Source of the DNA: a virus
Lineage: Duplodnaviria > Heunggongvirae > Uroviricota > Caudoviricetes
Reading direction: 5' to 3' (one strand)
IMG/VR virus record: IMGVR_UViG_2663762948_000001
Location: 1-28,068 of that record
DNA length: 28,068 nt
Shown here: one piece after another, positions 1-28,068 of the stretch
Layout: the number at the start of each line of letters is the position of its first letter
How positions within the stretch are numbered: the stretch's first letter is position 1
Program-made: the position numbers and the translations under genes
The notes under the pieces: generated by a model
Told to the model about the DNA's origin: nothing
The model's database searches: none
What the model saw: the letters and a program-made list of their open reading frames with translations, nothing else

Positions 1-483
1 TGCACGGTTATCTGCGCTTTGTTTACTGGCTATGCCTGATGGCTGCGGTGAAAGCAGCTGAATAACCCCACCGAGGAACAACGAGGCACCAGTGGCAGCA
101 GCAAACCCCGTCAATCCACCAGCAGCGAAAGCAGCGCCAATACCGCCGGGGCCAGTCAACACAGCAGCAGTAATAAGCACGGCCCCCAAGATCGTCTGCA
201 AAAGACCAGCCTTTTTACTCCCTATTACTACAGGGACAATCCGGATCACTTCGCCGGTGACGGGAAAGCCGAGATCATCAACGCCAATATTCTTTTTATC
301 TCTATAAACGGCATACGTCAGCCCTCGTGCTTTGCTTGTGTTTAAGAATTTCTCGAATCCATTGATGGTTTTCGCGAGTGCATTAATGGCTTCAGCAGTA
401 GTGCGAACCAGACGGTGATGAACCCTTCCATATGTCTTAGCTAGCACGCCACTTAGCTCAATTCTTGTCATTACCTCTTGCAT
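1..483 (-). CDS. I: Tail assembly protein I, N-terminal part (C-terminus lies beyond the window start)
   Basis: ATG at 483..481 (alternative ATG at 471..469) reads MQEVMTRIELSG..., then a glycine-rich hydrophobic stretch; no stop before position 1. Sits directly downstream of K as in lambda, and the architecture matches my recollection of lambda gpI. Confidence 0.6.
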   Translation of the reverse strand, partial: MQEVMTRIELSGVLAKTYGRVHHRLVRTTAEAINALAKTINGFEKFLNTSKARGLTYAVYRDKKNIGVDDLGFPVTGEVIRIVPVVIGSKKAGLLQTILGAVLITAAVLTGPGGIGAAFAAGGLTGFAAATGASLFLGGVIQLLSPQPSGIASKQSADNRA

Positions 484-494
484 GCTGCCCCCAT

Positions 495-517
495 AAAAAA
501 ACCACCCGTAGGTGGTT
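495..517 (-). terminator. Intrinsic terminator-like hairpin plus U-tract between the small membrane ORF and gene I
   Basis: Minus-strand RNA has stem AACCACC/GGUGGUU with loop UACG (517..500), followed by a U run (499..495), then the I start codon. Confidence 0.5.
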
Positions 518-532
518 TGTTAATTTACGCTC

Positions 533-757
533 TCAAAGCCCAGCTTTTTTCCTTGCTTCTTCAAGGTAGTTTTCTTTCGACTGGTCTTTGTTATTTGCCT
601 CGAAGTTTGGATCTACTATTTTTGATAATTTCTGGTCGATAGACTCAAGTAATTCAACCTGCCTGTTCGCTCTGACGCTGGCGCGGTTGATGAAAAACCA
701 GAGAATTAACCCAATAAAAATACCGACGAAGATCCAACCAAACCCAACTGTATACAT
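533..757 (-). CDS. Small single-pass membrane protein, moron inserted between K and I; paralog of 5922..6110
   Basis: 74 aa; N-terminal hydrophobic helix, then a charged coiled-coil-like tail; AAGGAG RBS upstream of ATG 757..755. Shares the motif R-x-S-x-RAN-x-QVE-x-L-x-x-I with the 5922..6110 product. Confidence 0.65.
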   Translation of the reverse strand: MYTVGFGWIFVGIFIGLILWFFINRASVRANRQVELLESIDQKLSKIVDPNFEANNKDQSKENYLEEARKKAGL

Positions 758-2612: not shown

Positions 2613-5600
2613 TTATCGGGTTCCTTTCATTGCGTTCCAGATGTCACCGCCAGGGCGAATATCTCGCATGATGTTCTGCTTATATCGCTGATCAATATAT
2701 TTACCGACATCAGCACCAAATTGCTCAAGGCCGGGTGAAGTCTGCGTGGAAGTATTTCCGTTGCCATCGATGGTGATGTAAACCTGTGGAGCCGAAGATA
2801 CAGCCTGACCACCACCAGTGCCAACAGCCCGAACGCCAAGCGAACCATCAGCAGCACGGGTAAGCGGCATAATGGCTTCAGGTCCAGCCTCTGCAAACAC
2901 ACCCGCTCCTTTGGCAAAAGCAAAAAGCTGAGGGGTCTGAAACACGCCATTGCTGTATGCGCTCAGGGACGGAGAGTCGTAAACATTACCCTTCGCGTTA
3001 AAGGTGAAGTTCGCGCCAGCGTTCTGAATTGCAGTACCGCTACTGGCGGCAGCGGCGGAAGATGCGCCAAAGCTGAAGAGAGAACCAATTGAACTGACGC
3101 CGTTAGCAACAGCCATGTTCACCAGAACGTTCTGGATGATCTTCAGTACGCTCACGCCCCAGTCCTTCCAGCTGTCAACGTTGCCATTGAGCATGTCGGT
3201 GATCGTGGTGACCGCGCCACCCATGGCCTGCTTCATGCCGTCAGCGGCCATGGAAGAATAATCAGTAGCTTCGTCCACCCAGTTCGCATAACCCTCAGAC
3301 AGTCCCGTCATCCAGTCGTCACGCTGCGCATCAGAAGCTGCGTAATATCCCTCCTGGTCGCGCAGGCGCTCTTCGAGGTAGCGCTTATTAAGTGCCAGCC
3401 CCTGCTGATAGAACGTCTCGTCGATTTCACCAGCCTGACGCTGGCGGAGAAGATCGGTATTCTTCTGCTCAAACTCCTTACGCAGATTGAACTGCTCCTG
3501 AAGTCTTTCACGGAACCTGGTTCCCTGCCCGTAGCCCAGCAGTTGCGCTTCATTGGCTGCGCGGGCGCTGGCGTTACTGTCAGCAAGGTTGGCTTCGTAA
3601 TTTCGCAGTTGCTCACGCAATTTAACCTGATCGATGAGAGCAGCATTACGCATAACTTCGGCTTTCTGGGCCTGACTTAGCGTAGAAAGCTCACCCTGGC
3701 TTACCTGATATTTAACCTTTGCCAGCTCGGTATTCTGCCCTTGCAGAGCGATCTGCTCTTTTTGCTGCTTGATCAGCTTGTCATAGGTATCAGCTGTTTT
3801 TTCCGCCTCGGATTTTCCACCCTTATGGCGGCTTGAGTTACGAATTGCTTGTAATTGCCTGGCAGACTCAACTTCCATGCTGACATATTTCTCACGCCAA
3901 CCAGCTGGAAGGTTCAGATCAGATGCATCGAATTCTGCCTGCTTTCGAGCCTTATCCAAACCCTGAAGGCCAGATAACTCAAGCTGTCGCTGTGCTTTCT
4001 CAATAGCTTGTTGTTGCTTATTATCAAGCGCAGGAAGTACAGGTCCTGCATATTTTGGTGGGGACACTGCTGTAGACTGTCTGGAAACCTTGTTCAGCCG
4101 GTCATACATCTCTGTAAGAGAACTTACGGCGCCAGCCATTTCTACTGTTTTATTTATAGCCTGATCAGTTATGTCGTTTATTAACTGTTGTGTTTGCTTT
4201 CTTTTATTGAGCATTTGCTCAAGTCGGCCTTCTTCAACCGCAAGTTCTGAAGCAAAGTCTGCGGCTTTCTCAACCGCATCGTTATACAGCCATGTCCCCT
4301 CTGAAGCAGAATTGGCTGCTAATTTTGCGTTATAAAGTTGATTGGATAATTCAGCAACTTTCTGCTTCTGCTGTTCAATCGCACTATTCTGAGCATCCAG
4401 TGAAATATTCGCCTGTCCAAGGTTGGCGGATATCTGCGTCTGAGACATTGATTTCAGATTATCTCGTACCTGCTCGATTGTGTCCGCATATTGGATTGCA
4501 GATTCCCTGGCTTGTTCTTGGCGTTGATACATCGTGTACCACGCCCCAGCACCCAACATTAAAATTCCTGGCAAACCACCAACTAACGACAAAAGACCCG
4601 TAGCGCCAGTTTTTACAAGCCCCAGCACTGATGTTGCAGAGTTAAGTGCCTGCTGAGAGGCTGCAACGGCTCTGTTTGACTGTACCAGTGCCGCATTTGC
4701 TGTAATCATTGCCCGGCGCTTGGATATGGCATTTTGAGTGGCAGTAGCCTCAGCATTAGTATTCTTTGCCAGCACAAGTTCTGACTGAGCAAGCTGGTAA
4801 GCTCGCTCAGCAGCAATAGCATCGGCGGCGGCCTTGCGTTGTGATTGGGTAGCAGATTCAGCCCTTGCAGCTGCGAGCGCAATTTCGTTCTTTCTGGCAT
4901 CTATTAATTGCGCCGTCTGGTTCCCAAGATCGCCAAACATCCCTCCAAGATAGCGAGCTCCACCTATCGCAGCCAAAGCTCCGGCAGCCGTAGCCACAGT
5001 GTCTATATTGTCAGAAACCGTATTCAATACGGCAACAAGAGTACTTGTCGCACCAGTGGCTTCATTAGCGCCACCTACCCATGCCATGAAAGCATTTTCG
5101 ACTTTCGTCGTGGCAGCAGAAACGGTCTGCGGCATTGCCTCAAATTCACCACGCATAGTGCCAAGTTGACTTATCAGGGCCGGGACAACTTTATCTGCGG
5201 TTAGCATCCCCTGATCGGCCATTGCCTTCAGATCTTTACGAGCTACACCCATCCCTGCGGCAAGAGCACGGATAACTCGATCACCGTTTTCGTTGACGGA
5301 GTTAAATTCCTCGCCTCGAAGAACACCCTGCGCCAGAGCCTGGCTGAACTGCGTGATTACCGAACTCGCTTCAGACGCGCTTGCGCCTGACAGCTTAAGC
5401 CCTGTTGATATAGCCTCGGTTACCTTCAGAACCTCTTCTGAACTGTAGCCATATTCACGCATAGAAGCGGCTGAACGCGCAAAAAGACTCGCATTATCAG
5501 AGAAGGCGGTTCCGGTTCGCTGGCTAATATCCATCAGCGCCCGCTGGGACTCCGTGAAATCATCTGACGACTGGGAAGCCTGCTTTAGCCTGGCATTAAC

Positions 5601-5891
5601 AGAGCTCCATTCATCGGCCAGCGATATAAGATGACCAGTCGCAAATGCTCCAGCAAATGCACCAGCCATTCCCAGTGCTGAGGCCTTCGCGGTGTTTATT
5701 TGACTAGTTACCTCAGCCAAGGCACGCTGAGTTTCACGCGAAGCTGCGGCCGATTGGCGTCCTCCAGTCTGCATTACCCGGTAATAGTCATTCCCCATTC
5801 TTGAAGCACGAGAAATTTCAGACTGGAATGACTGAGAGTTTGCAGATATTTTGATGATCAGTTCGCGCAACGTAGCCATATTTTCACCCAT
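2613..5891 (-). CDS. H: Tail tape measure protein
   Basis: 1092 aa, Ala/Gln-rich coiled-coil, low-complexity, longest ORF in the tail cluster, located between G/GT and M. Confidence 0.9.
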   Translation of the reverse strand: MGENMATLRELIIKISANSQSFQSEISRASRMGNDYYRVMQTGGRQSAAASRETQRALAEVTSQINTAKASALGMAGAFAGAFATGHLISLADEWSSVNARLKQASQSSDDFTESQRALMDISQRTGTAFSDNASLFARSAASMREYGYSSEEVLKVTEAISTGLKLSGASASEASSVITQFSQALAQGVLRGEEFNSVNENGDRVIRALAAGMGVARKDLKAMADQGMLTADKVVPALISQLGTMRGEFEAMPQTVSAATTKVENAFMAWVGGANEATGATSTLVAVLNTVSDNIDTVATAAGALAAIGGARYLGGMFGDLGNQTAQLIDARKNEIALAAARAESATQSQRKAAADAIAAERAYQLAQSELVLAKNTNAEATATQNAISKRRAMITANAALVQSNRAVAASQQALNSATSVLGLVKTGATGLLSLVGGLPGILMLGAGAWYTMYQRQEQARESAIQYADTIEQVRDNLKSMSQTQISANLGQANISLDAQNSAIEQQKQKVAELSNQLYNAKLAANSASEGTWLYNDAVEKAADFASELAVEEGRLEQMLNKRKQTQQLINDITDQAINKTVEMAGAVSSLTEMYDRLNKVSRQSTAVSPPKYAGPVLPALDNKQQQAIEKAQRQLELSGLQGLDKARKQAEFDASDLNLPAGWREKYVSMEVESARQLQAIRNSSRHKGGKSEAEKTADTYDKLIKQQKEQIALQGQNTELAKVKYQVSQGELSTLSQAQKAEVMRNAALIDQVKLREQLRNYEANLADSNASARAANEAQLLGYGQGTRFRERLQEQFNLRKEFEQKNTDLLRQRQAGEIDETFYQQGLALNKRYLEERLRDQEGYYAASDAQRDDWMTGLSEGYANWVDEATDYSSMAADGMKQAMGGAVTTITDMLNGNVDSWKDWGVSVLKIIQNVLVNMAVANGVSSIGSLFSFGASSAAAASSGTAIQNAGANFTFNAKGNVYDSPSLSAYSNGVFQTPQLFAFAKGAGVFAEAGPEAIMPLTRAADGSLGVRAVGTGGGQAVSSAPQVYITIDGNGNTSTQTSPGLEQFGADVGKYIDQRYKQNIMRDIRPGGDIWNAMKGTR

Positions 5892-5914
5892 AAAAAAACC
5901 CGCTTGATAGCGGG
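5892..5914 (-). terminator. Intrinsic terminator-like hairpin plus U7 directly upstream of the tape measure start codon
   Basis: Minus-strand RNA has stem CCCGC/GCGGG with loop UAUCAA (5914..5899), then UUUUUUU (5898..5892), then AUG at 5891. Confidence 0.5.
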
Positions 5915-5921
5915 TCGTGAG

Positions 5922-6110
5922 TTATAAACTGTCTTTTCTTTGGTGAGCGACTTGTATTAATAAATCTATTTGCGCATCTTGCTTTTTATTTATCTCTTTA
6001 AGGGCTTCAACTTGTTCATTTGCCCTTGTGCTAAACCGTAATAAATAAAAAATCACAATTAGATTTATCAGCCAGCCGAATATTCCAAACACTACTACCA
6101 GTGGTTCCAT
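5922..6110 (-). CDS. Small single-pass membrane protein, moron between G/GT and tape measure (the position of HK97 gp15)
   Basis: 62 aa; N-terminal TM helix, then a charged tail; AAGGAGG RBS upstream of ATG 6110..6108; followed by its own terminator. Confidence 0.7.
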   Translation of the reverse strand: MEPLVVVFGIFGWLINLIVIFYLLRFSTRANEQVEALKEINKKQDAQIDLLIQVAHQRKDSL

Positions 6111-6167
6111 AACGCCTCCTTTACTTAAGGAAAGAGCGTATCGCTACATTGAAGGCATGTGAAGCAA

Positions 6168-6478
6168 TTATTGTGTCGCAGCTGTAAGTGCCGCCTCAAG
6201 CCCTGCAAACGGGTCCTTCGGTTCTGATTGCTCATCACCACCCCAGCGCAGGATCGCATCGTCCAGCGGTACTTTTGCCCCCTGCGAGCCGTAGATGGCA
6301 GAGACAATCTGCGCTGCATGGATATCACCGCGAATATCGCCAACCGGGCTTTGCCTGTCGTACTCAATCCACATCAGAAGCTCGCTTGCCGTCATATTCT
6401 GCCGAAGCTCTGAGAGCGTGCGCCCCATCCGGAGCGCAAGCGACATCAGAAACTTTACGCCGGGGGTTGAGACTTTTC
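6168..6478 (-). CDS. T: T-frame part of the tail assembly chaperone GT (made by -1 frameshift from G)
   Basis: This frame is -1 relative to G and is open from the GGGAAAAG site down to the stop at 6168; product contains MTASELLMWIEY... Confidence 0.7.
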
Positions 6479-6841
6479 CCGCGCTTCGTCCGCATTGTTG
6501 ATCAGGTCAAGCGCCTGTTTGAGCAGACGTGAGTGCACGGGCCCGTAAATTTCACGCACCTGCTCTTCTTCGTCTACGCTGAATACCGGTTGCTTATCGG
6601 TGTCACACAGAACGTCAATGAAGAGCACCACGTCAGCGCAAAGATTACGGTGCGCCTTTTCCGATACCGACACATTTTCATCGTCGCCCCCCCCTTTCAC
6701 CACCTCCTGCCAGCGCAGCCAGGCTTCACCTGACGGCTCACGGAGAACCACTTTGACACCTTCCCACTCAGGGACAACGACCGTCTTATGGCGAAAGCCA
6801 GCCATTTTCGCCATGGCTAATTGTTTTAAAGTTTGCGACAT
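6455..6841 (-). CDS. G: Tail assembly chaperone G
   Basis: 128 aa between the major tail gene and the T frame; acidic C-terminal region; overlaps the T frame. Confidence 0.8.
   Translation of the reverse strand: MSQTLKQLAMAKMAGFRHKTVVVPEWEGVKVVLREPSGEAWLRWQEVVKGGGDDENVSVSEKAHRNLCADVVLFIDVLCDTDKQPVFSVDEEEQVREIYGPVHSRLLKQALDLINNADEAREKSQPPA
6473..6481 (-). promoter_or_regulatory. Candidate programmed -1 ribosomal frameshift site (G to GT)
   Basis: Minus strand reads CGGGAAAAG; the G frame decodes CGG GAA AAG, the -1 frame decodes GGA AAA and stays open into T. Lambda uses GGGAAAG at the equivalent place (from memory). Confidence 0.55.
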
Positions 6842-6875
6842 CGCTTATCCATGCCGGGACAACCCGGCATCTCCA

Positions 6876-7580
6876 TTAACTGATAGTAAGGGTGCAGGCA
6901 GCTGAGGTAACCGTTTTGACCGGAGAAGAAGAATCCGTAACCACACAGGTGTAATCACCTGCATCACCTGAAACTGCGGTGGCTTTATTAAAGGTATCGG
7001 ATGTCTGCCCGCTGACGGTGCTACCTGCCTTCTTCCAGGTGTAGGCATACGGAGGCTTACCACCGGCAGCTACTACAGCCATGCTGATCGCAGCCCCCAC
7101 CGCTACAGACAGTGAGGAAGGAAGATCAGTGGTCAGTTTAAGTACAGAGTCAATCTGGACAGGCTTGCCTTTAAGGCGCAGTGAGAATGTAGCTGCCACA
7201 ACACCATTGGTACCAGATGACCAGGTATGCTGGCGAACTTCGGCCAGGAACTTAAAACCATTACCTGACGGGAAGATGATCTGGAAGCCGTAAGTGGTGT
7301 CGTTGTCATACGCATCACGCAAGGCGTCCTGCGCTGGATTATTGTAGAAGTTGCCGGACAGAGAGATTTCTGACGGAGAAGGCAGGCCGTTGATGTTCTC
7401 CTGCTCGGTAGAGCAAAGTGTTGTTACGTCGATATCCTGCTTCTGGCCACCAGTGAACTGAATTTCTTTGATGGTGCAACTCAGATCGAGAAAGGTGGCG
7501 GAATCCATCGTTTCTTTGGTGGACGGCAGGGAGGAAATAAGGATCTTCGTCAGCTGCGATTTTTCATAAAGTGCAGACAT
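6876..7580 (-). CDS. V: Major tail protein with C-terminal Ig-like domain
   Basis: 234 aa; C-terminus has a Big_2-like pattern (YTWKK...GDAGDYTCVVTD); sits upstream of G/GT. Confidence 0.8.
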   Translation of the reverse strand: MSALYEKSQLTKILISSLPSTKETMDSATFLDLSCTIKEIQFTGGQKQDIDVTTLCSTEQENINGLPSPSEISLSGNFYNNPAQDALRDAYDNDTTYGFQIIFPSGNGFKFLAEVRQHTWSSGTNGVVAATFSLRLKGKPVQIDSVLKLTTDLPSSLSVAVGAAISMAVVAAGGKPPYAYTWKKAGSTVSGQTSDTFNKATAVSGDAGDYTCVVTDSSSPVKTVTSAACTLTIS

Positions 7581-7639
7581 AGCTGTCTCCTGGAAAAAGA
7601 AAACCCGCCATCTGGCGGGTTCGTTGGGTGAATTAATTG

Positions 7640-7987
7640 TCAGGGGGTAACTTTAAAATCCAGGGTGGCACGGTAGAGCCGATAATCTGGCTCGTACCCG
7701 GGGATTTTTACCACCTCTGTAGGGGTTAACGGCTCAAGCGAAGCGAGCACCAAATCTCTCAGGGATCGTGATTCAGCGATCGAAGTGGAATACACATCGA
7801 CCTGAACGGAAACCCTGCTCTCTGCCTGACCACACAGCACGTCAGCGGAAACATCATCGACGATGGAAAAGATAATCCAGGGTGGAGAGACAGACGGTTT
7901 ACCGTCACTACCTAATGGCGCAACATAGGGATATACCCGTCCTTCTGCCAGGGGAGAAAGCAAGGCGTAGATATTATCTTCATTCAC
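7640..7987 (-). CDS. Tail completion / tail terminator-like protein
   Basis: 115 aa between the head-tail joining genes and the major tail gene; GTG start overlaps the upstream stop (GTGA). Family assignment is by position only. Confidence 0.55.
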   Translation of the reverse strand: MNEDNIYALLSPLAEGRVYPYVAPLGSDGKPSVSPPWIIFSIVDDVSADVLCGQAESRVSVQVDVYSTSIAESRSLRDLVLASLEPLTPTEVVKIPGYEPDYRLYRATLDFKVTP

Positions 7988-18815: not shown

Positions 18816-19439
18816 CTAACGTGTGACCGCATTCAAAATGTTGTCTGCGATTGACTCTTCCTTGTGGCATTGCACCACCAGAGCGTCATACAGCGGCTTA
18901 ACAGTGCGTGACCAGGTGGGTTGAGTAAGGTTTGGGATTAGCATCGTTACAGCGCGATATGCGGCGCTTGCTGGCATTCTTGAATAGCCGACACCTTTGC
19001 ATCTTCCGCACTCTTTCTCAACAACTCTCCCCAACTGCTCTGTTTTTGATATATCAACCGCACGGCCTGTACCGTGGCAATCTCTGCATCTTGCGCCCGG
19101 CGTCGCGGCACTACGGCAATAATCCGCATAAGCGAATGTTGCGAGCACTTGCAGTACCTTTGCCTTAGTATTTCCTTCGAGCTTTGCCACACCACGGTAT
19201 TTCCCCGATACCTTGTGTGCAAATTGCATCAGATAGTTGATAGCCTTTTGTTTGTCGTTCTGGCTGAGTTCGTGCTTACCACAGAATGCAGCCATTCCGA
19301 ATCCGGCTTGTGATTGCGCCATCCCCATAGCAGCCATCACATCAGTACCGGAAAGAGAGTCAGAAGCCGTGGCCCGTGGTGAGTCGCTCATCATCGGGCT
19401 TTTTGGCGAATGAAATTTAGCTACGCTTTCGAGTCTCAT
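18816..19439 (-). CDS. Q: Late antiterminator Q
   Basis: 207 aa starting MRLESVAKFHSPKSPMMSDSPRATASD with a Cys-rich zinc-binding region; appears near-identical to lambda Q from memory. Confidence 0.85.
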   Translation of the reverse strand: MRLESVAKFHSPKSPMMSDSPRATASDSLSGTDVMAAMGMAQSQAGFGMAAFCGKHELSQNDKQKAINYLMQFAHKVSGKYRGVAKLEGNTKAKVLQVLATFAYADYCRSAATPGARCRDCHGTGRAVDISKTEQLGRVVEKECGRCKGVGYSRMPASAAYRAVTMLIPNLTQPTWSRTVKPLYDALVVQCHKEESIADNILNAVTR

Positions 19440-22433: not shown

Positions 22434-23810
22434 TCATACGTCAGCCCCTTGTGCATATCGTCTGCCACGCGCAGCAGGTGCATTTGATGTTGTGCAAATC
22501 TGTCTGGCTTCATCCTGGTCACATGCAACAAAGTGTCCGTTGCAGAACCGCTGGTAAACCGTACCAAGCGAGCCAAAACGGTTTTTCGTCACAATGATTT
22601 CAGCAAATGGCGCGGCGCTACTGTTCTCGTCATATACCGCTTCCCGATAGAGCATGATGATTGAGTCTGCGTCCTGTTCAATGCTTCCTGAATCACGCAA
22701 ATCTGCGTTTGTCGGGCGTTTGTTTGGTCGCTTCTCAACATCGCGCGAAAGCTGACTCAGGGAGATAACGGGCGTTTTCAGGTCTTTCGCCATCGCCTTC
22801 AGGCTTCCGGAGATGTGAGCAATTGCGAGGTCGTTGCGGTCTGCTTTCGGCTTCTCAATCAGGCCAAGATAATCCACCATGATGAGTGAGAGGTTTGGAT
22901 TTTCCTGTTTGTGCCGTTCTGCGATTGAGCGTATTTCTTCGACCGATAACCGCGAGGCATCGACTACCCATACATCCAAATCTGCAAGCTGACTCATGCC
23001 GTTAGCAACGCGCGCCCAGCCTTCGTCATCCATCGCTGCAGGATTTCGCAGCACACTAACCGACATCCTCCCGGCGTTGGCAATGCTTCGCTCTGCAATC
23101 TGCAATGCGCTCATTTCCATTGAGAAAATCAATACCCCGCGCCGGACGTCAGAACCAGGAATAACGCGGCTTGCAACGCCTTCGGCAATCTTCAGCGCCA
23201 GTTCGGTTTTCCCCATACCAGGACGAGCAGCGATTATCACCAGGTCTTCCGCGTTCATCCCTCCGGTGATGGCATCAAGTTCTTCGATTCCGGTCTTCAG
23301 GGTATCTGACTCTTCTCCGTTCCTCAGACGCCTGTCAAGCGTGTCAGTGTAGTCAGTGATGATTTCCCCTAACCGTACAGGTTTAACCTCGTCACGGGGC
23401 TTTCTGATGGCTGAAAGACGCTTTACAAGCTCATCCATCGCCTGACTCGATGCGTCGATGGTTCCGCTCTGAATTGGTTCACGCATTTCATCCATGATTT
23501 CCAGCACCAGACGGCGGTGATAGTTATCCGCGACCATTCCGGCATATCCCTTCAGGTTTGCGGCACTCGGGCAGTTTTTGCTGGTCATCAGGATTGACGT
23601 GAAATGCTCCTCTCCGCACGCCTCGGCAACCATCAGCGCATCGATTAGGTTTCTGTTTCTCGCCTGCTTGCGGATAACCTCGAAGGCTTTCCGGTAGAGC
23701 GGAATTGAAAACGCTTCCGGCTCCAGCGTTGCCAGAACGTCGCTGGCGGTTGGTGTTAATCCACCAATCAGCAGGCCACCGATAACGCTCGCTTCGATAT
23801 CCTGTCTCAT
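22434..23810 (-). CDS. Replicative DNA helicase (DnaB family)
   Basis: 458 aa with Walker A ARPGMGKT and DnaB-like C-terminal motifs; ATGA overlap with O. Confidence 0.9.
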
Positions 23811-24628
23811 GCAATCCCCCTGTCTGCAAACTTCCCTTCCCGTACTCCCGTTAACGAATCTTCCCTCAGCAGGTAATCAAAATCAGCTGTCCAGCCCGTG
23901 TCGTTGTCTCCGAAGTAAAACGGCTTGGCCTGATGCACAAACGCCCTGACATACGCTCTGAAACCGTCCACGTTTGGCGTTTTCAGTTGCGGGATGATTT
24001 TCTTCAGGCGGCGTTTGCGTTTCTCGTTGACCGCAACAGCGTGTGGCAGTCTGTCACCGACTTCGGTGTTGTAGGCGTTCAGGAAGGATTCGTAGTCGAT
24101 TCGTTCTGCCTTGCGACGTTCAGGTTTAACCTGCCCATCGCCGCCCCCGTTAGGGGGTAAGGGGGTATTTGTATTTATTGTCTTTTGTATATTGTCTTTT
24201 GTGTTTAGCTGACTTGGCTTATACCCATTAGCCGACTTGGCTAATGTTTTATTAGCTGTTTTAGCTAATGTTAAGCTGTCCTGGCTAATCCACTGCGAAA
24301 CCACCTTGTTCACTCCGATTTTCACGCCATCAGCAATGAGGAATTTACGCTCGATAAGCTGGCGCTTGGCAGCGCAAACATGAGTGTGATGAATACCTGT
24401 CATGGCTGCTATCTGCGTGTTTGTGAGTCGATCCATCGGCTTATTGAATCCGTATGTCTTGCGCATGATAGCGAGCATCACCTTCAACTGCCGGACGGTT
24501 AAATCAGCCATCAGCAGACTGTCGGTAATCTCGTTAGCAACGCGCATGAAACCATCTTCGGTATCTGCCACGCGATGCTCCACGACCTCAAGTTGAGGCC
24601 TGTAATCAGCTAACTTAACGACGCCCAT
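23807..24628 (-). CDS. O: Replication initiation protein O
   Basis: 273 aa; N-terminal ...[28 protein letters not shown]... resembles the lambda O N-terminus; contains the ori iterons. Confidence 0.8.
24165..24290. repeat. Replication origin: four about 18-bp iterons plus an AT-rich tract inside O
   Basis: Iterons TTAGCTGACTTGGCTTAT (24205..24222), TTAGCCGACTTGGCTAAT (24228..24245), TTAGCTGTTTTAGCTAAT (24252..24269) and TAAGCTGTCCTGGCTAAT (24272..24289), each partly palindromic; adjacent AT-rich tract 24167..24204 with repeated TTGTCTTTTGT. Confidence 0.6.
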
Positions 24629-24810
24629 GTTTCACTCCTGCTTTGGCTAGTCTGTAAACACCAACAAGGCGCTCTGCGAACGCCCTGTTATTTGCTGCGG
24701 CTACCACTAATCCCTCAGGTGAATCAGGGTGTCGAATCTCTTCTTTTTCCTGGTATTTCTTACGACGTTTTGTCATAATTACTCCTGTGGATTGATCCAG
24801 TCTTTCTACA

Positions 24811-25089
24811 TCAGGCCTCGAAGAATTCGCCGTTCTTCGGGGCTTTTTCTTTTGTCAGCATTCTGGCTACTTTCTTAGCCAGTTCCGCCAACTCCTCGTC
24901 TTCAACACCCCATTCAAGAACAGCAAGAAGCATTCCCATTTTGGGGATGAAGCTGTCTTTCCATCGCGAAATTTGCGATTCATTAATCCCTAACGCGTCG
25001 GCAACCTTTCGCTGACCACGTACAGCAATTCGATTCAGGATGTTGCTTGTAATTGCATTCGCTTTCTTGCGAGTACTTGTAAGTTGCAT
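24811..25089 (-). CDS. cII: Transcriptional activator cII
   Basis: 92 aa with ...ESQISRWKDSFIPKMGMLLAVLEWGVEDEEL..., closely resembling the lambda cII core; AAGGAAAT RBS. Confidence 0.8.
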   Translation of the reverse strand: MQLTSTRKKANAITSNILNRIAVRGQRKVADALGINESQISRWKDSFIPKMGMLLAVLEWGVEDEELAELAKKVARMLTKEKAPKNGEFFEA

Positions 25090-25122
25090 ATGTAAGTATT
25101 TCCTTAACTAATAAGAAGTTAT

Positions 25123-25140
25123 GCGCATCAACTTATGCGC
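25123..25140 (-). terminator. tR1-like hairpin between nutR and cII
   Basis: Minus-strand RNA GCGCAU-AAGUUG-AUGCGC followed by a moderately U-rich stretch. Confidence 0.35.
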
Positions 25141-25146
25141 GTTGTA

Positions 25147-25190
25147 TTCCCGCATTTCGGCGGGAATGAGGACCATGACTGTTAAAGAGC
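25147..25190 (-). promoter_or_regulatory. nutR (boxA plus boxB)
   Basis: Minus strand has boxA GCTCTTTAAC, a spacer, then boxB hairpin TCCCGCCGAAATGCGGGAA; the same boxA/boxB pair occurs at nutL. Confidence 0.6.
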
Positions 25191-25197
25191 GGTGTTA

Positions 25198-25392
25198 CTA
25201 TTTGTTTTTCTTGTTGCTTGGGAAAGGACGAACTTCCTCTCCAATCACACTGCCATCAGGCTTTACCGTAACCATAATGTTACGGCCTGCCAGAATGGCC
25301 TTGCTGATAGCGCACTGGATTACACCAAAGTCACTGGCTGCTTTAGCCTGTCCATGGATTTTGGCGTAATCGGCAAGTGTCATTCGAATCAT
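25198..25392 (-). CDS. cro: Cro repressor
   Basis: Start [15 protein letters not shown] at ATG 25392 (the ORF track start at 25398 is GTG); ...[17 protein letters not shown]...PFPSNKK resembles lambda Cro. Confidence 0.8.
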
Positions 25393-25421
25393 ATGCACTC
25401 TCCGTTATTAACCATGAACAA

Positions 25422-25488
25422 AGAATACTACAGGTATTCAAAGCAATCAATACTCAGGGTATTTTTAGTTTAAGTACCTTAGCTATTA
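25422..25488. promoter_or_regulatory. OR operator cluster with divergent pR and pRM
   Basis: 17-bp palindromes GAATAC-TACAG-GTATTC (25423..25439) and CAATAC-TCAGG-GTATTT (25448..25464), plus a degenerate third site (25472..25488). Minus-strand pR is TTGATT (25450..25445), 17 nt, TATTCT (25427..25422). Plus-strand pRM -10 TAGAAT (25487..25492) sits 6 nt before the cI ATG, implying a leaderless cI mRNA. Confidence 0.55.
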
Positions 25489-25498
25489 GAATTAAGCT

Positions 25499-26215
25499 AT
25501 GGAAAATAAAAAATCACTGACGACAGAACAGCTCGAAGACGCTAAGCGGCTTAAGGCTTTGTATGAGTCAAAAAAGAAAGAATTGGGAATAACCCAATAC
25601 TCAATCGCTGATGAACTGGGTATCACCCAAGGAGCGGTAGGGCATTATCTTAATGGCAGAAACGCGCTAAACGTTGAGGTCGCATCTGGTTTTGCACGTT
25701 TGTTGCAAGTCTCAATTGCTGATTTTAGCCAGTCAATTGCTGCCAAGGTTGCAGAACAGGCAGAAAGCCTTAAGAGCGATGCCAACGTAAGGTATGCAGG
25801 GGAATACAGAGCAGGAAAGAGGTATCCGGTGTTAAGCAGTATCCAGGCTGGCTCGTGGTGTGAAGCATGCGAACCATACACCATTAAAGACATAGATGTT
25901 TGGCTTGAGTCTGACGCGCATATTCAAGGTAATGCGTTCTGGCTTAAAGTGGAAGGTGATTCAATGACGGCACCGGTTGGGTTAAGCATTCCAGAGGGAA
26001 CATTCGTTCTTTTCGATACCGGAAGGGAGGCGATCAACGGCAGCTTGGTCATAGCAAAACTTTCTGACTCTAACGAAGCAACATTCAAGAAGCTGATAAT
26101 CGACGGCGGAAATAAATACCTCAAGGGACTTAATCCTGCATGGCCTCTCGTGCCAATCAATGGAAACTGCAAGATTATAGGCGTTGCAATTGAGACAAAA
26201 CTAAGGCTGGTTTGA
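25499..26215 (+). CDS. cI: cI repressor (HTH plus LexA-like S24 autopeptidase domain)
   Basis: 238 aa; N-terminal ...LTTEQLEDAKRLKALYESKKKELGITQ... resembles lambda cI; C-terminal domain has the Ser/Lys dyad context (...GDSM...FKKL...). Confidence 0.85.
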   Translation: MENKKSLTTEQLEDAKRLKALYESKKKELGITQYSIADELGITQGAVGHYLNGRNALNVEVASGFARLLQVSIADFSQSIAAKVAEQAESLKSDANVRYAGEYRAGKRYPVLSSIQAGSWCEACEPYTIKDIDVWLESDAHIQGNAFWLKVEGDSMTAPVGLSIPEGTFVLFDTGREAINGSLVIAKLSDSNEATFKKLIIDGGNKYLKGLNPAWPLVPINGNCKIIGVAIETKLRLV

Positions 26216-26232
26216 TCACGCAAGGGGCGATT

Positions 26233-26601
26233 ATGGTTGGAACCGCTATAGCAAGCTTTTTTGGGATGTTGGCAATCTCGACAATTTACGGCTTAGCGCA
26301 TGCTTTTATTGCGAAATCTCTATCAGAAAAAATAAGCCAGGCTTGGGCGCATAGATCAGCTCGTTTCATGATTCTGGTGATCATAGCAATACAAGGGATA
26401 TCTGCATTTATCCTCTATGGATCAAGCTTATACCTATTGTATCAAGGCGCGACATTTACGCCTTACACCAGTGATTACGGAACTCTATACGATGGTAGTG
26501 AAGACATCACTGTGGCTTGGATCGTCTTTGGTTTATCTATGGCCGTGTCTGTTGTAGCAGACATCATTAAGGTAATTCTCGTCTTAACCTTCGCTGACTA
26601 A
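26233..26601 (+). CDS. 3-TM membrane protein co-transcribed with cI (rex position)
   Basis: AAGGGG RBS 5 nt before ATG 26233 (the ORF track start at 26212 is TTG); 122 aa with three hydrophobic helices; begins 18 nt after the cI stop. Confidence 0.55.
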   Translation: MVGTAIASFFGMLAISTIYGLAHAFIAKSLSEKISQAWAHRSARFMILVIIAIQGISAFILYGSSLYLLYQGATFTPYTSDYGTLYDGSEDITVAWIVFGLSMAVSVVADIIKVILVLTFAD

Positions 26602-26731
26602 CCTATAATCCCGGCAGCAATAGCTATCGGGATCCACTTCACATATCCCGCATAAAAAGCACTGAACAAGCAGAAACCGAAAAAATAAATATCCTTTGTA
26701 TTCATTTGCTTATCATTATTTCATCAAAAAT

Positions 26732-26774
26732 AAATACCTTGGGTATTTACACAATAAAATACCTACAGTATTCT
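26732..26774 (+). promoter_or_regulatory. OL operators with pL
   Basis: AAATAC-CTTGG-GTATTT (26732..26748) and AAATAC-CTACA-GTATTC (26757..26773), same half-sites and 25-bp spacing as OR; candidate pL -35 TTTACA (26746..26751) and -10 TATTCT (26769..26774). Confidence 0.5.
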
Positions 26775-26819
26775 TTAGCCATCAGCAGGACGCTGGTAGC
26801 CAAACGGAACAGATTGGCA

Positions 26820-26862
26820 GGCTCTTTAACATTGATGGGATTGTCCCGCCGAAATGCGGGAA
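26820..26862 (+). promoter_or_regulatory. nutL (boxA plus boxB)
   Basis: GCTCTTTAAC, a spacer, then TCCCGCCGAAATGCGGGAA, identical in boxA and boxB to the nutR element on the other strand. Confidence 0.6.
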
Positions 26863-27172
26863 CCAAAGAGTAGTTGGCTTTGGGGTGACGTGAAGTGCAG
26901 CTGCACGACGGCAACCGGAAGATAAGCACCCGGCGCGTCACCGCCAAAGTCAATTCCATAGGCGAAATGCAGCCGCCAAACACAGCCAATGCTGCACATG
27001 CAACAGGAGGATTTATGTGAATGCATAACTTCAAAACCGAGGTTAATTAAATCTCTCGATCCGAGCATTGACCTATTAGGTGGCGAGATGCTCTTTCTGC
27101 CCCTCAGTTCGAGGGGCCAGAAACCACTTTGCAATCACTATCAATTCCAAAGTTGTTTCATCGGAGGTCAAC

Positions 27173-27445
27173 ATGACAGTAGTCATTACATATCTGGCTG
27201 ACGATAACGCCAGAAATCGCCGCAGAGCACGCAGACAGGCTCAACGTGAACAGGCAATGCAAGAGCAGCGACTGACGCGAAAAATTGCGCTAAAGCTCTC
27301 TGGTTGCGTCAGAGCAGATAAAGCAGCATCACTCGGAAGCCTTCGCTGTAAGGAAGAAGATGAACGCAGTGGAAGTATTTGCCTGCCAAACGTAGCTCTT
27401 TACGCGGCAGGATACCGGAAATCAAAACAACTGACAGCGAGGTAA
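27173..27445 (+). CDS. N: Antiterminator N
   Basis: GGAGG RBS; ATG 27173 is the first in-frame ATG; 90 aa with N-terminal arginine-rich motif DDNARNRRRARRQAQREQA like lambdoid N proteins. Confidence 0.7.
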   Translation: MTVVITYLADDNARNRRRARRQAQREQAMQEQRLTRKIALKLSGCVRADKAASLGSLRCKEEDERSGSICLPNVALYAAGYRKSKQLTAR

Positions 27446-27448
27446 GTG

Positions 27449-27673
27449 ATGAATCAGACATACATTCCATCATGCTTGAGAAATCTGCCAAAGCAGAAAG
27501 CAAAGCCCCGCAAGCAAGCCATAAAGGACGCTAAGTCAGAGGTTATTGATAAAGCAATACAATTGCTCAGGGAGGAGTTAAGAAGTGGCAAGCTCGAAGG
27601 AATGATGATGCCCTATCAGCGCGGATATCTATCGGCGATTAGTAAGTTGGAAGTATTGAAGAGTGAATTATGA
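27449..27673 (+). CDS. Hypothetical protein downstream of N
   Basis: 74 aa; GAGG RBS; basic N-terminus, predicted helical. Confidence 0.35.
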   Translation: MNQTYIPSCLRNLPKQKAKPRKQAIKDAKSEVIDKAIQLLREELRSGKLEGMMMPYQRGYLSAISKLEVLKSEL

Positions 27674-27800
27674 ACTATCTGGAATTTCCGGATGGTTCAT
27701 TGTTTTGGCAGCAAGCCACAGAGGTGATATATGGAAGAAGAATTTGAAGAGTTCGAAGAGCATCCTCAGGATGTGATGGAACAATACCAGGACTATCCGT

Positions 27801-28010
27801 ATGACTACGACTATTGATAAAAATCAATGGTGTGGACAATTCAAGCGATGCAATGGATGCAAGCTGCAATCGGAATGCATGGTTAAGCCTGAAGAAATGT
27901 TTCCTGTAATGGAAGATGGGAAATATGTCGATAAATGGGCAATACGAACGACGGCAATGATTGCCAGAGAACTTGGTAAACAGAATAACAATGAATCGCC
28001 ACGGGTTTAA
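27801..28010 (+). CDS. ral: Ral-like restriction alleviation protein
   Basis: 69 aa starting MTTTIDKNQWCGQFKRCNGCKLQSECMVKPEEMF, matching my recollection of lambda Ral. Confidence 0.55.
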   Translation: MTTTIDKNQWCGQFKRCNGCKLQSECMVKPEEMFPVMEDGKYVDKWAIRTTAMIARELGKQNNNESPRV

Positions 28011-28068
28011 CAGACACCTCAGAGTCATTTAAGATGGCTTAAAGAGAGGTGCCCATGAGCGGTAAGCG

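Follow-up and report, generated by a model that had tools for sequence, protein, structure and literature searches.

Gene 15 of bacteriophage HK97 is the founding, textbook example of the moron concept. The exclusion function of its product, Gp15, was reportedly published by Cumby et al. 2012 (J Bacteriol 194:5012). According to the authors' commentary the protein is produced by the prophage of HK97, inserts into the inner membrane, and excludes incoming phage independently of repressor immunity (PMC3594210). Two sources report that it blocks the injection of the genome by HK97 and HK75 (PMC3594210; PMC10883804). The commentary states that an exchange of tail regions between HK97 and HK022 relieves the exclusion, and describes the precise mechanism as unknown (PMC3594210). 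A 2026 review, which is a secondary source, has gp15 interacting with the TMP-PtsG complex (PMC12939059). A reading of the present DNA made from its sequence only (hereafter the sequence-only reading) had the protein acting with the tape measure protein; the sources report a dependence on the tail genes of the incoming phage, and it is the one review that asserts the TMP-PtsG interaction.

Several other exclusion systems may be compared with gp15. Like gp15, the Cor protein of phi80, N15 and HK022 is encoded by a moron of the prophage and shields the lysogen from incoming siphophages. However, Cor is a lipoprotein with no relationship to gp15, and it acts by inactivating FhuA, a receptor in the outer membrane (PMC3594210), whereas gp15 works at the inner membrane without blocking a receptor. 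Ltp of TP-J34 is escaped by mutations in the tape measure, compared with the HK022 tail swap in the case of gp15 (PMC10883804). P22 SieA, TP-J34 Ltp and Tuc2009 Sie2009 have no sequence relationship to gp15, and come from systems with other hosts and tail types; P22 is short-tailed, and Ltp is a surface lipoprotein.

We have analyzed a stretch of viral DNA of 28,068 nucleotides, comprising positions 1 to 28,068 of the IMG/VR record IMGVR_UViG_2663762948_000001 and termed the window below. It encodes a cI-like S24 repressor (25499..26215), Cro, CII, O, a DnaB-like helicase (22434..23810) and Q, from which we conclude that it derives from a temperate lambdoid phage. The closest sequenced relative is mEpX1, with 82% coverage at 98.2% identity. 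The early and immunity region (22437..28068) diverges from that of mEpX1, and this divergence marks the window, as judged from its alignments, as a new mosaic HK97-like phage. Among the complete E. coli genomes in the collection none holds the whole window, the best covering 72% of it.

The part of the late operon that surrounds the tape measure junction contains the following features, listed in the direction of transcription, with the antiterminator gene given last.

7622..7601, minus strand: a further terminator-like hairpin in the gap between the gp11 homologue and the major tail gene, with a 9-bp stem containing six GC pairs
7580..6876, minus strand: major tail gene
6841..6455, minus strand: tail assembly chaperone G (Pfam Phage_TAC_1, E = 1e-60)
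6446..6168, minus strand: T frame (Pfam Phage_tail_T, E = 1.5e-20)
6111..6167, minus strand: spacer of 57 nt between T and gene 15
6163..6135, minus strand: candidate weak sigma-70 promoter within the spacer, TTCACA-17 nt-TACGCT, matching 8 of 12 consensus positions in a relaxed scan
6121..6115, minus strand: Shine-Dalgarno sequence AAGGAGG, 4 nt 5′ of the gene 15 ATG, read from the sequence
6110..5922, minus strand: gene 15 (gp15), ATG start, 62 aa, MEPLVVVFGIFGWLINLIVIFYLLRFSTRANEQVEALKEINKKQDAQIDLLIQVAHQRKDSL
5916..5892, minus strand: intrinsic terminator of the moron, with an 8-bp stem, a 4-nt loop and T7, found by RNA folding and by a terminator scan
5891..2613, minus strand: tape measure gene H, the orthologue of HK97 gp16, a 1092-aa ORF (Pfam TMP_3, Phage_HK97_TLTM and Tape_meas_lam_C)
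18816..19439, minus strand: Q antiterminator (Pfam Antiterm PF03589, E = 2.8e-56), on the same strand as the late operon and upstream of it

The small ORF between T and H was compared with gene 15 of HK97 and its relatives. The encoded protein differs from HK97 Gp15 (AAF31105) by the single change M14L (61 of 62 residues identical, 98%), and is 100% identical to Gp15 of mEp234, mEpX1, HK75, HK446, HK544, HK106 and HK633. The 801 bp surrounding the gene are 100% identical to the corresponding DNA of HK544, HK446, HK106 and mEp234, and 99.8% identical to that of HK97. Over an aligned 321 bp (5860-6180) the differences from HK97 comprise a single SNP and a T-run shorter by one T, and the spacer between T and gene 15 is 100% identical. 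Thus the slot (between gp14 and gp16 in HK97), the ribosome-binding site, the spacer and the stem-loop of the terminator are all the same in the two phages, while HK97 differs in having M14 in the membrane helix and a T8 tail to its terminator, where the window has L14 and T7. The L14/T7 form is also present in mEp234, HK446, HK544 and HK106, and L14 is the commoner allele of gp15.

Existing annotation of these phages is in agreement. The HK97 record AF069529 annotates the ORF as 'gene 15, Gp15, moron product', followed by 'terminator, putative' at the matching place, and the 2025 records of mEp234 (PV340539) and mEpX1 (PV340543) give 'Gp15 exclusion protein'. By its sequence, the ORF at 6110..5922 is HK97 gene 15 itself, and not merely a gp15-like gene. 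We are highly confident that the element belongs to a temperate phage or prophage of the HK97 type and is its gene 15 moron, in the form of the L14 allele carried by mEp234, mEpX1, HK75 and others.

The sequence-only reading had recognized a gp15-like superinfection-exclusion moron, placed as in HK97 between G/T and the tape measure gene. The placement is indeed that of HK97, and the assignment is supported by the identity of 61 of 62 amino acids, by the slot, and by a tape measure protein that is 99% identical (1084 of 1089 residues) to HK97 gp16. The reading had proposed the gene as a candidate; the comparison shows that it is not a new one, since gene 15 and its exclusion role are already known. 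For gene 15 the value lies in correct annotation, given the vagueness of the RefSeq labels. RefSeq describes gp15 only as 'YebO family protein' or 'hypothetical protein', and gene 15 is present in 6 of 5426 complete E. coli genomes, where NCBI names its product 'YebO family protein'.

The anatomy, base composition and context of gene 15 can be observed directly, as can its identity. The gene had been described as encoding a 62-aa single-pass membrane protein, and hydropathy analysis predicts exactly one transmembrane segment, at residues ~4-24, where the Kyte-Doolittle mean over 19 residues reaches a peak of 2.53. The other 38 residues form a hydrophilic stretch with many charged positions. 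There is no lysine or arginine on the N-terminal side of the helix, and R25 and R29 follow it; by the positive-inside rule this distribution predicts that the N terminus lies outside and the C terminus in the cytoplasm. The protein matches Pfam YebO (PF13974) with E = 1.2e-9 and a score of 38.7 bits, compared with a gathering cut-off of 27, and the PHROG family phrog_5031 with E = 4e-29. The opposite (plus) strand of the moron interval contains no ORF of at least 40 aa.

The relationship to YebO raises the question of whether the gene might be host-physiology cargo, i.e., a YebO-like gene of lysogenic conversion with a role in the envelope or in stress, for which exclusion would be absent or incidental in this allele. 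The Pfam match above the gathering score and the RefSeq name used in E. coli genomes both lend something to this idea, as does the resemblance of the N-terminal half of gp15 to E. coli YebO (b1825), with 38% identity over 48 aa. The two proteins share an N-terminal transmembrane helix followed by an R-x-S-x-R-x-N-x-Q motif and a helical tail. However, YebO is a chromosomally encoded protein of 95 aa, whereas gp15 has 62 aa and a diverged C terminus. The authors' commentary identifies the YebO proteins of Enterobacteriaceae as the homologues of gp15, reports that deletion or overexpression of E. coli YebO had no effect on HK97, and describes gp15 as a descendant of the host family that has diverged at its C terminus and gained the exclusion function (PMC3594210). 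Moreover, the present allele is one conservative residue away from the HK97 protein that was tested. We therefore consider it very unlikely that the gene serves host physiology in place of exclusion. The favored assignment, that of the HK97 exclusion moron, carries with it the expectation that the L14 protein should behave like HK97 gp15, although the change is located in the membrane helix.

The signals for expression of gene 15 were analyzed in turn. The sequence-only reading had drawn attention to an AAGGAGG ribosome-binding site and to a terminator belonging to the gene, and both are present. The Shine-Dalgarno sequence is unchanged in four diverged gene 15 alleles. The stem-loop of the terminator is GACCCGCT-ATCA-AGCGGGTT (5916..5897), and the T7 run occupies 5898..5892, such that its first two thymines are also the last two bases of the stem. 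The hairpin folds as RNA with a free energy of −14.9 kcal/mol (z = −4.2), none of 200 shuffled sequences folding equally well, and it is picked up independently by the terminator scan. Scanning the full window for Rfam families and tRNAs returned nothing, and no RNA element accounts for the moron region.

The promoter is less clearly defined. A stricter scan of 5500..7700 revealed no site matching at least 9 of 12 consensus positions, and the best sites found in the relaxed scan reach 8 of 12. One of these lies within the spacer (6163..6135), with hexamers that are invariant in the four diverged alleles; three of the four substitutions in the spacer region fall between the hexamers. These features hint, weakly, that the moron may have its own promoter, with this site as a candidate for it. 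As there is no strong sigma-70 consensus upstream, independent transcription of gene 15 rests on the published HK97 data.

The terminator is followed by the tape measure gene, and the sequence-only reading had the hairpin and T-run abutting the start codon of H. This stands in part. The T-run directly abuts the ATG at 5891..5889, the earliest in-frame start codon available to the tape measure ORF. However, the conserved N terminus of the tape measure protein, MATLRELI, opens at a second ATG at 5879..5877, and this is the start annotated in the original HK97 record and the one kept in phage LAU1 behind a different insert. From these correspondences the true start of H is probably the ATG at 5879, which lies 12 nt past the T-run and does not touch it.

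On the other side of the moron, the upstream boundary is formed by G and the T frame, which are equivalent to gp13 and gp14 of HK97 and, according to the HK97 annotation, are joined by a -1 frameshift. Further upstream, the hairpin at 7622..7601 corresponds to a 'putative terminator' of the HK97 record, which carries other putative terminators within the late operon. Since such a strong hairpin is found inside the late operon, a terminator alone is no marker of a moron in this operon. In lambdoid phages, antitermination by Q lets late transcription pass terminators. With Q present in the window, late transcription would be able to pass the terminator of the moron to reach the tape measure gene.

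The definition of a moron that we have applied is said to come from Juhala et al. 2000. Gene 15 is additional DNA separating genes that adjoin each other in related phages. In lambda T is directly followed by H, as the sequence-only reading had stated, the two genes overlapping by 8 nt, and gp15 is missing from HK022. Homology to LAU1 and SaltyDalty is lost at the T stop codon and picks up again where the tape measure gene has its ribosome-binding site and start. The inserted DNA is also unlike its flanks in base composition, with a GC content of 33% in the gene 15 ORF and 37% over the insert, compared with 51% in the tape measure gene, 55.5% for G and T combined and 58% for the T frame by itself. 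Lastly, the element has its own terminator.

A course of events in the lysogen may be proposed on this basis, in which expression from the prophage, membrane location, the block to injection and escape by tail swapping are all carried over from the near-identical HK97 gene. A short transcript would begin in the 57-nt spacer after T and end at the hairpin and T7, and would be translated from the strong ribosome-binding site into the 62-aa protein. This would enter the inner membrane via residues ~4-24, leaving three residues in the periplasm and a helical tail of ~38 residues in the cytoplasm according to the predicted topology. There gp15 would prevent the delivery of DNA across the inner membrane by superinfecting siphophages whose tail or tape measure is of the HK97 type, leaving adsorption unaffected and acting independently of repressor immunity. 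During lytic growth, RNA polymerase modified by Q would read through the terminator, such that the tape measure gene would still be expressed.

We have also examined what occupies the position between T and H in related phages. For this purpose, the interval from the T stop codon to the tape measure start was measured in 80 IMG/VR contigs (L006-L085) in which the T protein shares at least 96% identity with that of the window. T was directly followed by H in none of the 80. In every contig the interval contains a single-gene insert of one of six kinds, 288-565 nt in length, with a further insertion in one contig (L046). The six cassettes are as follows.

Cassette A, 11 contigs: gp15
Cassette B, 29 contigs: 111-aa protein with two transmembrane segments and a C-terminal zinc ribbon (PF13248; phrog_8436)
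Cassette C, 13 contigs: secreted Cys-rich protein of ~97 aa
Cassette D, 10 contigs: 121-aa lipoprotein (LIAGC; phrog_27124)
Cassette E, 10 contigs: 113-aa lipoprotein (ISAC; phrog_2320)
Cassette F, 7 contigs: 78-aa lipoprotein of the Cor superinfection-exclusion family (phrog_1119, E = 1e-30)

Every cassette is AT-rich, with 33-44% GC compared with ~58% in T, and each has its own hairpin and T-run just before the ribosome-binding site of the tape measure gene. Cor thus fills the exact slot of gene 15 in about 7 of the 80 sibling contigs. Cassettes B to F are mixed across two types of tape measure, and gp15 is found with the HK97-type tape measure only (11 of 11 among the 80 contigs). This association fits an exclusion that is specific for the tail or the tape measure, and simple linkage would explain it too. 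In HK97-like phages of Klebsiella the slot contains a 77-aa YebO-like gene, the product of which is 47% identical to gp15.

The survey bears on a second alternative, in which gp15 would be an accessory of tail assembly or injection in the phage's own lytic growth, for example a membrane partner of the tape measure, expressed from the late operon only. The gene does lie inside the late operon for the tail, reads in the same direction and immediately precedes the tape measure gene, and in our sample it never occurs apart from an HK97-type tape measure. Yet lambda and HK022 make similar tails without gp15, and siblings with T proteins at least 96% identical hold unrelated genes in the same slot. 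The foreign base composition of gene 15 and its own terminator are further arguments against such a role, and the commentary reports that the protein is expressed from the prophage and inhibits, rather than aids, the entry of HK97 (PMC3594210). We regard this alternative as highly improbable, more so than a role in host physiology. That the ORF is a chance occurrence or a degenerate remnant without a product is scarcely credible; despite its small size (62 aa) and high AT content, it has a perfect ribosome-binding site, is identical or nearly so in more than 10 independently isolated phages, keeps its reading frame in diverged alleles, has the Klebsiella homologue (47% identity) in the same slot, and is matched by both Pfam and PHROG profiles.

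The gene 15 exclusion moron is thus one of six occupants of the junction, of which two are proven exclusion proteins (gp15 and Cor) and four are uncharacterized. It is possible, and we put it forward tentatively as somewhat short of an even chance, that the T/H junction is a dedicated exchange site for cassettes encoding envelope proteins, each excluding a different class of incoming phage. If so, the proteins of the other four cassettes would be new exclusion proteins. A search of the literature available to us revealed no published account of the T/H slot as a multi-cassette hotspot, which is not proof that it is undescribed. Together with the gene considered next, the T/H cassettes provide a short, testable list of candidate proteins that might block injection or a receptor.

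The window contains a second YebO-like moron in the same operon, in the slot between K and I.

757..533, minus strand: gp20 moron, 74 aa, between K and I (Pfam YebO, E = 1.8e-12)
495..517, minus strand: terminator of gp20, a hairpin and T7, −14.9 kcal/mol

Its design is that of gene 15, with an AAGGAG ribosome-binding site, a small ORF, and a hairpin and T7 followed by ATGGG. It differs in occupying the K/I slot and not T/H, in its length of 74 aa, and in having a C-terminal YLEEARKK that gp15 lacks. The GC content of gp20 is 40%, compared with 55% in K. A paralogue of gene 15, it encodes a protein that shows 43% identity with gp15 across 44 aa and 73% with E. coli YebO across 30 aa, and that is thus closer to the host protein than is gp15. 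It corresponds to the 'gp20' of HK022 and mEpX1, and the gene is intact here and in HK022, mEpX1, HK75 and others. At the HK97 locus, however, codon 32 is TAG in place of CAG and no CDS is annotated, so that work on the HK97 lysogen would miss any activity of gp20. Our literature search found no published function for gp20. Were the T/H junction an exchange site of the kind suggested above, intact gp20 would be a second exclusion gene derived from YebO, hidden in HK97 by the stop codon.

The two morons have an identical junction with the gene that follows, where T7 and then ATGGG create an upstream in-frame ATG for both H and I. The ATGs are paired at 5891..5889 and 5879..5877 for H, and at 492..494 and 481..483 (minus strand) for I. 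The records annotate these starts inconsistently; the conserved start of the protein is at the second ATG for both H and I. The likeness of the two junctions may stem either from a common origin or from a mechanism of insertion.

A C-terminal motif, [DEN]YLEEAR[KQ]K, is common to gp20, the YebO-like protein in the T/H slot of Klebsiella phages (L088:3983-4216) and the unrelated cassette B (e.g., L025). In a six-frame translation of the fetched loci, amounting to ~1 million aa, the hexamer YLEEAR has no other occurrence.

Two further observations concern individual occupants of the T/H slot. In contig L046 the Cor cassette is split by ~1.07 kb of extra DNA, giving a T/H insert of 1630 nt in total; this DNA, which has an ORF of 322 aa on its other strand, probably represents an insertion sequence. 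In the Enterobacter phage LAU1 (MN688132; L004:2880-3245) the T/H gene is annotated as a 56-aa ORF beginning at TTG. The frame in fact starts with an ATG that has a GGAGG ribosome-binding site, from which it encodes a 121-aa lipoprotein (MVKILILIIFLIAGC...), and the 56-aa annotation is probably an error.
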